Below, one piece after another: positions 52,501-58,500 of a stretch of 64,000 nucleotides of DNA (position 1 is the stretch's first letter; each line of letters starts with the position of its first letter). The stretch is from the NCBI RefSeq assembly GCF_057098645.1, contig NZ_CM169472.1; one strand, 5' to 3'. The position numbers were made by a program.

Positions 52501-55500
52501 GAAATTATCGGGGAAAGGACTGTACTCATGTTCTAACCTCCTCAGATTAGGCGCGACGACCTTTTTGCGCCTCTAGCCACCGCGCAACGGTTTCTTCAAT
52601 TGATTCTTTTTTCTCCTTCATTTCCTTAAGCATTTTCTCTTTGTCTTCTTTTGGGAAAGCCCTGAACGTCTGGATCAAATCTCGCTCTATAGGTTCTATA
52701 TTAAACGGAAGTTCGTTTTCCGATTGCTCCATCTCTGCGGGTAAAGCGACAACATTATCCTGCTGCAGTTCTTGGGGGTACATCCTTACAATTCGTAACA
52801 AGTCTGCCATATCTGGTCTAATTGACTCAGGCGGAACTTGTAGCAACCCAGCGAACTTGATAACAGCCTCTAGATTTAAAGGTGTCTGACCATTTAGATA
52901 ATGGCTTACTGCCCCTTGTGTCGAAAAACCCAGAATTTCTGCCGCACGCTCTTGGGTTAACCCAAGTTGAGTTTTTTTCGTCGTCCAGATTTCTTTCAGT
53001 CTCTGGGCGGCTTGCAGGTCGATCTCTGACAGGGGTTTTCTTTTCATACCTTCAATTCTAATAAGATTATTAATCTCTTTGAAATAGCGATGCTATTTAC
53101 TTTTAAAAATAACAATGTTATTAATGCTCATGGTCACATAACATGAGGTGAACAATGAATCTTGGAGAATATTTGCATCATTCCCGTATAACCCAGAAAG
53201 ATTTTGCTGAAATTGTTGGGGTAACCCAAGGGATGGTAAGCCATGTTATTACTGGACGGGCGAAACTTACGGGGGGGGAAAGTTTTACGCTGGTGTGAAG
53301 CAACAGGGTGGGTAGTGACCCCGCACGAGATTGATAGCAGTACTTACCCCAACCCAACCGATGGCATACCTGTTGACTATCAGGCTAACACACAACCCGC
53401 GCTGGGAGTTGATTCATGAAAATCAAGCATGAGCACATCCGCATGGCGATGAATGCCTGGGCATACCCTGATGGTGAGAAAGTTCCTGCAGCTGAAATAG
53501 CCCGGACTTATTTCGAACTGGGGATGACGTTCCCGGAACTGTACGACGACAGCCATCCGGAAGCCCTGGCTCGTAATACCCAGAAAAATTTCCGCTGGGT
53601 AGAGAAAGACACCCCTGATGCAGTTGAAAAAATTCAGGCGTTGTTACCAGCGATCGAAAAGGCAATGCCACCTTTGCTGGTGGCAAGAATGCGCAGCCAC
53701 AGTTCAGCTTATTTTCGGGAGCTGGTGGAGACGCGGGAGCGACTGGTGAGAGACGCTGATGATTTTGTCGCAGTGGCAATCGCCGGTTTCAATCAGATGA
53801 ACCGTGGTGGCCCGGCAGGAAATGCTGTGGCAGTGCATTGAGTGATAATAGCCATATCGAATCGCTTCCGGCAACTCGTGAGTAAAAAGATTCGGTATCA
53901 GAAGAGGTGAGTATGGCTAACGCCTGGCTCAGATTATGGCATGACATGCCAAATGACCCTAAGTGGCGAACAATTGCCAGGGTGTCAGGGCAGCCAATTG
54001 CAACAGTGATGGCAGTGTATATCCACCTCCTGGTGAGCGCGTCACGAAATGTCACGCGAGGTCACATTGATGTCACGACAGAAGATTTGGCAAGTGCGCT
54101 CGACGTGACAGAAGAGGTAATTGATTCAATTTTGCAGACGATGCAGGGGCGGGTACTTGATGGTGATTTAATCACTGGATGGGAAAAACGCCAGGTGCTT
54201 AAAGAGGACAACGGCAATATTTCGCAAACCGCAAAATCTCCTGCAGAGCGCAAGAGGGCGCAGCGAGAGAGGGAAAGAAAGCGGGAACAAAATGGCGATT
54301 GTCACGGCGCGTGGATTTGCCCCTATATTTCCAGACATCTGTTATCACTTAACCCATTACAAGCCCGCTGCCGCAGATATTCCCGTGGCGAGCGATAACC
54401 CAGCGCACTATGCGGATGCCATTCGTTATAATGCTCGAACGCCTCTGCAAGGTTCTTTGCTGCCGTTAACCCGTCTGGTTTGGGCATGATACTGATGTAG
54501 TCACGCTTTATCGTTTTCACGAAGCTCTCTGCTATTCCGTTACTCTCCGGACTCCGCACCGCCGTGTTCTTCGGTTCAAGTCCCAACATCCGGGCGAACT
54601 GGCGTGTTTCATTAGCCCGGTAGCATGAACCATTATCCGTCAGCCACTCCACTGGAGACGACGGAAGATCGTTGCCGAAGCGGCGTTCCACCGCTCCCAG
54701 CATGACGTCCTGTACTGTTTCACTGTTGAAGCCGCCGGTAGTCACCGCCCAGTGCAGTGCCTCACGATCACAGCAGTCCAGCGCGAACGTGACACGCAGT
54801 CTCTCTCCGTTATCACAGCAGAACTCGAACCCGTCAGAGCACCATCGCTGATTGCTTTCTTTCACGGCCACTCTGCCTGTATGTGCCCGTTTCGATGGCG
54901 GTACAGCAGGTTTTCGCTCAAGCAACAGCGCATTCTGGCGCATGATCCGGTAAACACGTTTGGCATTGATCGCAGGCATACCATCAAGTTCTGCCTGTCT
55001 GCGAAGCAGCGCCCATACCCGACGATAACCATACGTGGGCAGCTCTCCGATAACATGGTGTATACGGAGAAGCACATCCGTATCATCAGTGTGACGACTG
55101 CGGCGGCCATCCATCCAGTCATCGGTTCGTCTGAGAATGACGTGCAACTGCGCACGCGACACCCGGAGACAACGGCTGACTAAGCTTACTCCCCATCCCC
55201 GGGCAATAAGGGCGCGTGCGCTATCCACTTTTTTGCCCGTCCATATTCAACGGCTTCTTTGAGGAGTTCATTTTCCATCGTTTTCTTGCCGAGCAGGCGC
55301 TGGAGTTCTTTAATCTGCTTCATGGCGGCAGCAAGTTCAGAGGCAGGAACAACCTGTTCTCCGGCGGCCACAGCAGTAAGACTTCCTTCCTGGTATTGCT
55401 TACGCCAGAGAAATAACTGGCTGGCTGCTACACCATGTTGCCGGGCAACGAGGGAGACCGTCATCCCCGGTTCAAAGCTCTGCTGAACAATTGCGATCTT

Positions 55501-58500
55501 TTCCTGTGTGGTACGCCGTCTGCGTTTCTCCGGCCCTAAGACATCAATCATCTGTTCTCCAATGACTAGTCTAAAAACTAGTATTAAGACTATCACTTAT
55601 TTAAGTGATACTGGTTGTCTGGAGATTCAGGGGGCCAGTCTAGCGCGTCACGAAATGTCATGCACATGTCACGACGAGTCACGACAGATAAAGATACAGA
55701 TAAAGATACAGATCAAGAAGATCAAAACACTATGGTCCATGGCGTAAAAAACGCCACGAACCAGGCAGGGGATGTTCAGACCGTCAATCCTGGTCAGCCA
55801 GCAGGCACGACACCGGAAGCCGATTCAGCGTATGCGCTGAAAGCCGATTCGGGCGCTGTGCAGCAGGTGATGACCGCAAGGCCGAAGCAATCACACCAAC
55901 TGCAGCAGCCTGAAGCCGATTCCGCCATTCAGCGGGAAGCCGATCGGGTAGTCCCGGAAAACACCGGGCTGTCTGTGGGACGAGTGGATTATCCGGATGT
56001 GTTCGAACAGGTCTGGCGGGAGTACCCGTTGCGTGCCGGAGCAAACCCGAAGAAATCCGCATTCAGTGCCTGGAAGGCCAGATTGCGCGAGGGGGTGCCA
56101 CCAGAGACCATGCTGGATGGTGTGAGGCGTTACGCGAGATACCTGGCGGCGACCGGGAAAGCGGGAACGGAATTTGTTCAGCGAGCGACGACGTTTTTTG
56201 GGCCGGACCGGAATTTTGAAAACCCCTGGTTGCTCCCGGTAAGCGGCACGAACAACCAGCGTTGTGTGAATCATATTTCTGAACCGGATACCGAAATTCC
56301 GCCGGGATTCAGGGGGTGATGTGGCATGAAAAACATTGCGGCAGCCGGGGTTCTTGAACGTATTCGCAGACTTGCACCACCGGCGTCGGTTCCACCGTAC
56401 CGGACGGTGGAGGAGTGGCGGGAATGGCAACTTGCTGAAGGACGAAAACGCAGCGAGGAGATTAACCGCCAGAATCACCAGTTGCGGGTGGAAAAAATCC
56501 TGAATCGTTCGGGCATCCAGCCTCTGCACAGCAAATGCTCGTTTGCGAATTATCAGGTGCAGAACGACGGGCAAAAATACGCGCTGAGCCAGGCCAAATC
56601 CATAGCTGACGAACTGATGACCGGGTGCACGAATTTTGTGTTCAGCGGTAAAACCGGCACCGGGAAAAATCACCTTGCAGCGGCGATGGGTAACCGGCTG
56701 ATGGCGAAGGGGCGCAGCGTGATTATCGTCACCGTGTCTGATGTCATGAGCGTGTTGCATGACAGCTACGACAACGGCAAATCCGGGGAAAAATTTTTAC
56801 AGGAGCTTTGCAGTGTTGATTTGCTGGTCCTGGATGAAATAGGCGTTCAGCGGGAGACGAAAAACGAGCAGGTGGTATTACACCAGATAATTGATCGCCG
56901 GACAGCATCACTGTGCAGTGTCGGGATGTTAACAAACCTGAATCATGCCGCAATGAGTACGCTTCTTGGTGAGAGGATTATGGACCGCATGACCATGAAC
57001 GGTGGTCGATGGGTGACGTTTAACTGGGATAGCTGGCGTCCAAATGTCAGCAATATGAGGGTTGTGAAGTAATTTTGTCCGGAGGAAATTTTAATGGAAA
57101 CCGTATCTGACGCACTGAAAGCACTGAAAAAAGCCTCTTCACATGTGGTGGCAGCTCGCCTTGGAATCAGTCGTGAAGAGGCTGTCAACGAGCTGTGGGA
57201 ACTCAAAAGAAATGGCGTCGTTGATAAAACTGGTCACACCTGGTTTCTGGCTGGCGAAGGTGAATCCCGGGTAACCGAAGAGCGGCCAGTAAAATCTGAA
57301 GCACAGGATATGCTGACCGGGGAGGTCGAACAAAAAGTTACCGCAGACATGATGATTGAGTTTATCGGTCAGGATGGGGCTAAAACGTGTGAGGAACTGG
57401 CGGGTAAGTTCGGTGTCAGTACTCGCAAGGTTGCTTCCACGCTGGCGGTGGTAACCGCAACGGGGCGGCTGGCACGCGTTAATCAGAACGGTAAATTTCG
57501 TTACTGCATGCCGGGCGATAATTTACCAGCAGAGCCGAAAGCCGCGCTGGTAACGGAAAGTGATGGTAAGGCCTTTCCTCAGCCAGCAGGTGCTGCGTTA
57601 CCAGTCCGGGAAGCCGCAACACAGGAAGAAATTAAAACAGAAACTGTGGCGGACATTGTGCAGCCGTTGCCATCGTTTACCGAAACGCAAGCAGATGAGC
57701 TGATTTTTCCGTCCCTTCGCAGGGCAAACCTGGCGCTGCGCAGGGCGAAAAGTGATGTTCAGAAGTGGGAGCGAGTCTGCGCCGCGCTGCGGGAGCTGAA
57801 CAAGCACCGGGATATTGTTCGACAGATTACTGATTCTTCCCGCCGTGTTGTATCGGAAAAGTGATTGCCGGAGGCGCTTATGGCAAAAGTATTTACACAG
57901 GAAGAGCGGGAAAAAATTAAAGGGCAGGTTGTTGAGCTAGTACGCCGGAGTGGGCGCGAGACGTTACGGCAACTGGAAGCCAAGACAGGTGCGACAAGAT
58001 ATCTGATGAGCGTTCTTGCCAGAGAGCTGGTTGCCAGTGGCGATGTATACAACTCTGGTTACGGGTTATTCCCATCTGAACAGGCTCGTAAGGACTGGCA
58101 AAACGCCCGCAAAAAACTATCGAGGGCAAAACTGAAGAAACCGGTTGTGGTTGATCCTGACCTTATCTGGTCATTACCAGACGGAGAAATACGCCGCTAT
58201 GACAGGCAATTGAACATAATTTGTAGTGAGTGCCGTAACAGTGAAGTGATGCAGCGAGTTTTGATATTTTACACAGGAGTAATGATGGAATAGTGAAAAT
58301 AACATGAAACCTTTGGATTCTGGTGTTTCAGTGGATGGGAAAAGAGCAGATACATAGAAAATGAATAGCAATAATTCACAGTCTGGATGTTGTTTGTATG
58401 CTTATAAAATGATCCTAGTATGCATTGCCGGAGTTGAATCAGCTCCAATGAAGAAACTGAGAGGAGTATTTAGAAGATAGCTAAATGGATGTAATTATTA

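Follow-up and report, generated by a model that had tools for sequence, protein, structure and literature searches.

We examined a 64,000-nucleotide stretch of contig NZ_CM169472.1 (RefSeq assembly GCF_057098645.1; the whole stretch is hereafter called the window), in which a prophage replication-initiator gene is split by a copy of the insertion sequence (IS) IS2. The locus belongs to a lambdoid E. coli prophage integrated beside yccA and forms its early-right (replication) region, where a divergent repressor-like gene is followed by a Cro/YdaS-like pseudogene, a YdaT-family gene, the initiator gene and a DnaC-like helicase-loader gene (Table 1). The initiator gene contains two arrays of short GTCACG repeats, and IS2 lies within the second of them. 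We assign a probability of about 0.8 to the reading that this region carries an iteron origin inside the initiator gene, that IS2 entered it recently and that no functional initiator is made from this copy.

Table 1. Features of the interrupted replication region (positions are those of the window)
Feature	Position	Strand	Details
Junction of a deletion in the exonuclease gene	49524..49526	gene on minus (~47860..49900)	3-nt microhomology
Repressor-like helix-turn-helix gene, immunity region	52547..53047	minus	divergent
Cro/YdaS-like pseudogene	53155..53430	plus	tblastn pieces in frames 2, 3, 1
YdaT-family / CII-like gene	53416..53841	plus	directly upstream of the initiator gene; PHROG 163, RefSeq name in C325
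Initiator gene, 5' part	53913..54311	plus	codons 1-133; predicted winged-helix-like N-terminal domain
Array 1, four GTCAC(G/A) cores	54041..54077	plus	starts 54041, 54051, 54061, 54072
Single inverted GTCACG	54104..54109	minus	downstream of array 1; also in pAEv1818 and phi1
Array 2, core 1	54301..54306	plus	severed from the other four cores by IS2; contiguous in C325, RM9154, RM13516
Target-site duplication GCGCG, left copy	54307..54311
IS2	54312..55642	minus	1331 bp, intact; transposase opposite to the initiator gene
IS2 orfB	54323..55228	minus	301 amino acids, intact
IS2 orfA	55186..55551	minus	121 amino acids from its ATG, intact; mechanical open reading frame extends to 55596
Target-site duplication GCGCG, right copy	55643..55647		last G is the first base of array 2 core 2
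Array 2, cores 2-5	55647..55683	plus	starts 55647, 55657 (GTCATG variant), 55668, 55678
Initiator gene, 3' part	55648..56319	plus	codons 134-356 and stop; disordered linker, then helical C-terminal domain
A-rich tract, 12-bp tandem repeat ACAGATAAAGAT	55684..55735	plus	directly after array 2; candidate DNA-unwinding element
DnaC-like helicase-loader gene	56326..57072	plus	intact, 248 amino acids, PHROG 50

The initiator gene and its IS2 insertion

When the flanks of IS2 were joined with one GCGCG copy removed, they formed an open frame of 1077 nt from a GTG at 53907, encoding 358 amino acids plus a stop codon. Counted from the ATG at 53913, the start used by the RefSeq homologues (as in C325), the gene is 1071 nt long and encodes 356 amino acids. 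A preliminary description of this DNA had proposed a split replication-initiator gene with a single restored frame of about 359 codons, and this proposal held: the sequence was restored base for base, and the rejoined protein matched PHROG 3729, 'replication initiation protein', over residues 1-356 against profile positions 1-356 of 356 (E = 1e-254). Close relatives carry the NCBI name 'phage replisome organizer', and NCBIfam gave no family for the protein.

Aligned to related prophages, the flanks rejoined exactly into the allele carried by C325, RM9154 and RM13516, and the sequence across the junction was identical to that of C325 and RM9154. The same prophage, with an uninterrupted gene, occupies the same chromosomal site beside yccA in C325 and RM13516; RM9154 shares the prophage replication region, and its initiator gene is likewise uninterrupted. 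The differences in this alignment were confined to the number of copies of a 12-bp repeat (2, 3 or 5) and to single-base substitutions, of which one falls in the third iteron in RM13516. More widely, the rejoined gene aligned in one piece, at 97-98% identity, with seven phage records, Tritos and Evi among them, and the uninterrupted junction was found in 1644 of 5426 complete E. coli genomes (~30%; 327-nt probe spanning the rejoined junction, at least 80% covered). A match to the gene was present in 2184 E. coli genomes, and some E. coli genomes held two to four places matching the initiator gene region.

The inserted element had been described as an intact 1331-bp IS2 with a GCGCG target-site duplication, and its length, reading frames and flanks all bore this out. 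Its terminal inverted repeats are imperfect (33-nt arms, 79% complementary), and an A6G slippery site, the programmed -1 frameshift site, lies in the overlap of orfA and orfB; together with the length of ~1331 bp and the 5-bp duplication, these are features of a canonical IS2 (IS3 family). The orfA product scored 275.8 bits against NCBIfam PRK09413, 'IS2 repressor TnpA' (cut-off 229), and the orfB product 727.6 bits against PRK09409, 'IS2 transposase TnpB' (cut-off 597). No second copy of IS2 was found in the window, and 1330 of the element's 1331 bases are identical to an IS2 of E. coli 503829.

IS2 entered the 4-bp spacer between cores 1 and 2 of array 2, and core 2 is regenerated by the right-hand copy of the duplication; the uninterrupted alleles of C325, RM9154 and RM13516 hold a single GCGCG. 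The insertion is recent, given flanks that match C325 at 99.8-100% identity and a perfect duplication. A megablast query made of 300 bp of flank and 300 bp of IS2 returned no match covering at least 80% of its length in any of the 5426 complete E. coli genomes, and the exact 36-nt junction was absent from the GTDB representative genomes.

Two matches to the junction query, in strains 503829 and 503440, extended ~20 nt into the flank. We rejected a shared insertion hotspot as the explanation for 503829, as the similarity is a chance one and the insertion a different one. In this strain (NZ_CP025869.1, retrieved locus 4023..5353), an independent IS2 with a CTCGC duplication splits the lambda-O-type replication gene of another lambdoid prophage. 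The lesion is of the same kind as that in the window, whose particular junction was seen in none of the genomes searched. Insertions in lambda O and P have been reported among the survivors of replicative killing (PMC6022878).

Phased repeats and an A-rich tract within the gene

The preliminary description had placed IS2 inside GTCACG repeats with a periodicity of about 10-11 bp, and had noted a further cluster at the position of array 1. Both observations were confirmed: the core-to-core spacing of array 2, once rejoined, is 10, 10, 11 and 10 bp, and the four cores of array 1 (searched as GTCAYR) are spaced 10, 10 and 11 bp apart. At the protein level, array 1 corresponds to residues ~43-58 of the N-terminal domain, which form the end of a helix and a loop. 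The third core of array 2 reads GTCACG in RM13516, Tritos and Evi, and the inverted GTCACG beyond array 1 may be an extra binding site or may simply encode D-V-T. No other 60-bp stretch of the window held three or more GTCAYR cores, and a stretch with four was never reached in 300 first-order Markov simulations. GTCACG is not enriched across the window (30 observed, 26.6 expected), and 8 of its 28 copies outside IS2 fall within ~400 bp of the rejoined gene. Only the clustering and phasing of GTCACG are significant, not its overall count.

Array 2 runs directly into the A-rich tract, which holds two exact copies and a third, 83% copy of ACAGATAAAGAT (55684..55719) and encodes the DKDT repeats that open a disordered linker. 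The A+T content of the 40 bp from ~55687 is 75%, compared with 46% for the gene as a whole, and these 40 bp are the least stable of the gene, lying 3.7 standard deviations above its mean free energy, in agreement with the AT-rich tandem repeat first noted there. The repeat varies in copy number while remaining in frame (2 in the window and RM9154, 3 in C325, 5 in RM13516), and its motif is also found in Rac ydaU, P0093 and pAEv1818.

Such repeats could be a by-product of coding, that is, peptide repeats or products of replication slippage with no function in cis, and the number of 12-bp DKDT repeats does vary like a slippage-prone microsatellite. The GTCACG cores, however, occupy all three reading frames and encode differing residues. 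Among 50 aligned units from five genes, the core positions were conserved in 44-50 units and the best flanking position in 29. As the cores are present in all frames and are kept while the peptide changes, they are DNA repeats and not peptide repeats. Likewise, in the O157:H7-type alleles Z866 and ZIM (~85% nucleotide identity), which have five GTCACG cores in array 2 and, with a 21-nt insertion, six in array 1 (each GTCACG or a one-mismatch variant), the hexamers are retained while the spacers and the encoded peptides differ. With the 10-11 bp phasing recurring across genera, and with both arrays, 260 bp apart, sharing a lineage-specific motif, we consider a mere coding by-product highly improbable. 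The differences in allele length fit the gain or loss of repeat pairs, as we infer from the alleles compared (10 + 11 = 21 nt, or 7 codons); steps of this size preserve the reading frame.

The layout extends well beyond E. coli. The N-terminal domains of Aeromonas phage pAEv1818 and Pseudomonas phage phi1 share 73-74% protein identity with that of the window, their array 1 cores stand at the same gene positions as in the window (129, 139, 149 and 160), and just before the A-rich tract pAEv1818 has three cores and phi1 four. The motif itself differs by lineage: GTCACG in E. coli, pAEv1818 and phi1, GTAACGC in a metagenomic relative with a YdaS/YdaT/initiator/DnaC-like module, CGAACGC in Caudoviricetes ct2G2228 and GCAACGC in Ralstonia phage Firinga. 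Each of the distant relatives again has two arrays, one at ~nt 125-185 and the other at ~nt 315-455 of the gene, and an A- or purine-rich tract comes after the second. In codon-preserving shuffles, 0-2 of 500 reached the observed clustering in 7 of 10 genes, and the recurrence of two clusters holds in those of the seven whose top-scoring hexamer is the repeat motif. For pAEv1818, the top scorer was an A-rich AGATAA motif, its GTCACG arrays having been shown separately. The VG35 allele fuses a different N-terminal domain to the same C-terminal half, and has no GTCACG and two clusters of AAGGGGCTT. Between relatives, the breakpoints of such N-/C-terminal mosaics fall at the A-rich tract.

On sequence grounds, this layout most likely represents a phage origin inside the initiator gene, made up of two phased iteron arrays ~260 bp apart, the second abutting the A-rich tract. 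Direct repeats within the initiator's own gene, beside an A+T-rich element, are a feature that it shares with replisome organizers. In the mechanism we propose, the N-terminal domain would bind the phased iterons along a single face of the helix, after which the A-rich tract would open, and the C-terminal domain would recruit DnaB via the neighbouring phage DnaC-like loader or via host DnaC; a recent transposition of IS2 into the spacer of array 2 would then have broken the initiator. What we infer here is that the iterons are bound, that the region functions as an origin, that a helicase is recruited and that replication is defective.

Several observations weigh against this reading. The arrays of Cy-LDV1 and VG35 are weak (62-68 of 500 shuffles reach their clustering), and Microcystis phage Mwe-JY25 shows no array in the shuffle test. 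Because of their physical linkage, the co-variation of the motif with the N-terminal domain is by itself no proof of binding. A literature search on GTCACG iterons returned nothing relevant, and a Foldseek search of the predicted initiator structure against the PDB returned only non-significant winged-helix regulators (best E = 0.5). In Tritos and Evi, the 1071-nt initiator gene is the same and has all nine repeats, yet the DnaC-like and DUF1627 genes are missing after it and a DUF977-like gene comes directly next (retrieved loci 3618..4064). A phage-encoded loader thus seems dispensable, leaving the loader step of the mechanism uncertain.

The role of array 1 is likewise unexplained by a simple origin model; this array is embedded in the sequence coding for the N-terminal domain, well away from the A-rich tract. 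This would suit repeats that are regulatory, serving autoregulation of the initiator gene or forming a transcriptional roadblock, in which case the prophage would have its true origin at another place. Array 2, however, is always followed directly by the least stable, A- or purine-rich tract, the canonical layout of SPP1 and lambda, and the visible part of the prophage holds no other repeat cluster. We therefore regard a purely regulatory role as improbable and retain the in-gene origin as the preferred interpretation.

The initiator protein and related replication systems

The initiator had also been called O-like, a term that fits by analogy and not by homology. Its 6-bp direct cores are unlike the 18-bp inverted repeats of lambda, and Pfam Phage_rep_O gave no match, even at E <= 10, for the initiator or for any of 25 aligned relatives. 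Judged by its sequence, the protein is not a detectable homologue of lambda O. Pfam Phage_rep_org_N (PF09681) aligned below threshold (E = 0.24, over model positions 1-118 of 121), with no aligned relative at E <= 0.1. When the N-terminal domain was set against SPP1 G38P and Tuc2009 Rep by hhalign, in a profile-versus-single-sequence comparison of low sensitivity, the probability was 0.1%.

An AlphaFold model built on 25 sequences had two confident domains, an N-terminal one of helices and a small sheet (residues 4-95) and a helical C-terminal one (residues 245-332), and the ~115 residues between 128 and 243 were modelled as disordered. A sequence search of the PDB with the initiator found only a weak match of its last 20 residues. 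This tail, EPDTEIPPGFRG (last 20 codons, 56260..56316), resembles the C-terminus of E. coli DnaT (PDB 6aep, 2ru8 and 9zbt; E = 0.02-0.07). The tail is also present in Rac YdaU and many relatives, and may be a short motif contacting host replication proteins; the DnaT-like match hints at a direct use of host factors. The next gene encodes a DnaC-like protein that matched NF009043 over residues 1-248 of 248 (509.5 bits, cut-off 389) and scored 297.8 bits against the DnaC model, below its cut-off of 357; 199 of its 248 residues (80%) are identical to those of YdaV of the K-12 Rac prophage.

In lambda, the origin lies inside the O gene and consists of four iterons and a 39-bp region of high A+T content (PMC6022878). 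The arrangement in the window had been likened to this origin, and the likeness holds in that iteron-like repeats and an A-rich tract lie inside the gene and are conserved in distant relatives. Like the origin proposed for the window gene, that of lambda stands where a DNA-binding N-terminal part meets a C-terminal part that binds the partner, and in lambda an iteron array, in the window a putative one, leads directly into an A+T-rich tract (PMC6022878). The likeness fails in the repeats themselves, as lambda has a single array of four ~18-bp inverted repeats, whereas the window has 6-bp direct cores phased at 10-11 bp in two arrays. The partner genes also differ, being P in lambda and DnaC-like in the window.

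Modular exchange is a further point of likeness to lambda O and P, since the N- and C-terminal modules of the window gene's relatives are swapped at this same point, and Z866-type relatives pair a window-like N-terminal domain with a 'replication protein P' gene. The alleles of O157:H7 Z866 and S1-ZIM-01-A are themselves mosaics, with the same N-terminal domain and arrays, a DnaT-like C-terminal half (PF17948) and a following gene named 'replication protein P'.

A further parallel is offered by the replisome organizers of Gram-positive phages, namely SPP1 G38P with oriL, Tuc2009 Rep2009 and TP901-1 ORF13, which, like the window initiator, have no AAA+ domain. In r1t, the organizer ORF11 is paired with a DnaC-like ORF12, a pairing that resembles the gene pair of the window. 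In SPP1, the AB boxes and A+T-rich element bound by G38P lie inside its own gene 38 (PMC5737612), and in TP901-1 and Tuc2009 the origin is made up of direct repeats within the organizer gene (PMC8965321); the sequence record of Tuc2009 notes 'contains origin of replication'. These organizers are reported to bind in-gene direct repeats beside an A+T-rich element. No significant sequence match links them to the window initiator, the hosts of the window family are Gram-negative, and the iteron sequence and two-array layout are specific to that family.

The Rac prophage has the same gene order as the window (repressor, ydaS, ydaT, initiator and DnaC-like gene), and its ydaU gene (retrieved locus 3120..3977) shares with the window gene both the AATAAAGATACAGATAAAGAT tract of the linker and the terminal IPPGFRG. 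YdaU differs in its DUF1376 N-terminal domain, in having no GTCACG and in a linker with GTTCAAAC-like repeats before the AATAAAGATACAGATAAAGAT tract. The window initiator has no such YdaU-type domain, and BLASTP aligned it to YdaU over the last 19 residues only (68% identity). Rac is reported to carry an active origin, oriJ (PMC3945230), which may lie within the repeat and tract region of ydaU.

Consequences of the insertion and state of the prophage

The insertion truncates the initiator after residue 133 and separates it from its C-terminal domain. Read-through into IS2 would give a predicted product of 161 amino acids ending at 54398, that is, the N-terminal domain and 28 IS2-encoded residues. 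As the confidently folded C-terminal domain is lost, this copy is expected to make no functional initiator. In addition, a 1.3 kb, oppositely oriented element now lies inside the replication operon.

The preliminary description had gone further, proposing that IS2 inactivates both the initiator and the origin. The truncation supports the first half of this proposal. The second half was overstated, since four iterons and the A-rich tract remain contiguous in the window, and at that place pAEv1818 has only three cores and phi1 only four. The origin may in fact survive in cis, with only the initiator protein lost, if the four right-hand iterons and the tract form a sufficient core that an initiator of the same specificity, supplied by a co-resident or superinfecting phage, could rescue; genomes with two to four places matching the gene region are in keeping with this. 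On the other hand, the first iteron has been cut off and array 1 moved 1.3 kb further away, and lambda needs transcription through or near its origin in cis (PMC6022878), which IS2 probably interrupts here. We see a surviving origin as a serious possibility, though one we lean against.

The claim that IS2 left the prophage defective was also too strong, since other lesions are present. The frame of the Cro/YdaS-like gene shifts at eight consecutive G near 53262 and again near 53395, and the gene is split in C325 and RM13516 even though their initiator gene is intact. As this stretch is identical in the two, the gene is a lineage-wide pseudogene older than the IS2 insertion. Furthermore, a segment of 391 bp that the otherwise near-identical prophage of C325 has in its exonuclease gene (C325 retrieved locus 5136..5526) is missing from the window, a frame-shifting deletion that truncates this gene. 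Sister copies carry other IS elements, one in the integrase gene of RM13516 and one beside a truncated regulator gene in RM9154.

The insertion may thus have had no functional consequence, IS2 being one more neutral lesion in a prophage already cryptic, as the split Cro-like gene, the missing exonuclease segment and the IS elements of the sister copies would suggest. A broken Cro-like gene alone, however, does not abolish replication after derepression, and, IS2 apart, the window, like C325, has an intact initiator gene, DnaC-like gene and integrase; the late region lies outside the window. We therefore hold this explanation to be possible but doubtful, and retain the loss of a functional initiator as the effect of IS2, which may not have been the event that disabled the prophage.

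Three further elements lie in the prophage: a RelE/RelB toxin-antitoxin pair beside the repressor gene (52048..52529, minus strand), the small RNA DicF (50550..50601, minus strand) and a hok/sok locus (59854..60028, plus strand; Rfam sok, 107 bits). The integrase adjoins yccA (46146..46552), and no tRNA gene was found in the whole window by ARAGORN or by Rfam at the gathering threshold, although in K-12 serT lies beside yccA.

An origin within an initiator gene and the knockout of a prophage gene by IS2 are ordinary; the two-array design with its motif groups may be undescribed. No description of this design or its motif groups was found for this initiator family in the literature searched, and the 'Eru' classification of the replication regions that non-lambdoid Stx phages carry does not include the module of the window. 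Array 1 may coincide with the codons for a loop in the DNA-binding domain of the initiator itself, such that the iteron sequence dictates part of the protein, and iteron number may change in frame-preserving steps of two units. The IS2 allele, which keeps a complete DNA-binding domain and all nine iterons, could act as a decoy or dominant-negative factor against superinfecting phages with the same iterons; phage-encoded resistance of a comparable kind is on record for cloned lactococcal phage origins and organizers. We think it unlikely that the locus reveals a truly undescribed origin design of Gram-negative temperate-phage initiators, with arrays ~25 helical turns apart, or that the IS2 allele serves as such a decoy.

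As found, the insertion carries little weight. With IS2, the lesions of an already damaged prophage number three; it is commonplace for IS elements to insert into prophage genes, and an origin embedded in its initiator gene is a textbook arrangement. The conserved layout offers more, namely a testable prediction of the origin for this module, with exact candidate binding sites and specificity groups. The layout could explain why mosaic breakpoints fall at the A-rich tract, and the specificity groups could help to predict which co-resident prophages cross-activate one another or interfere in replication.

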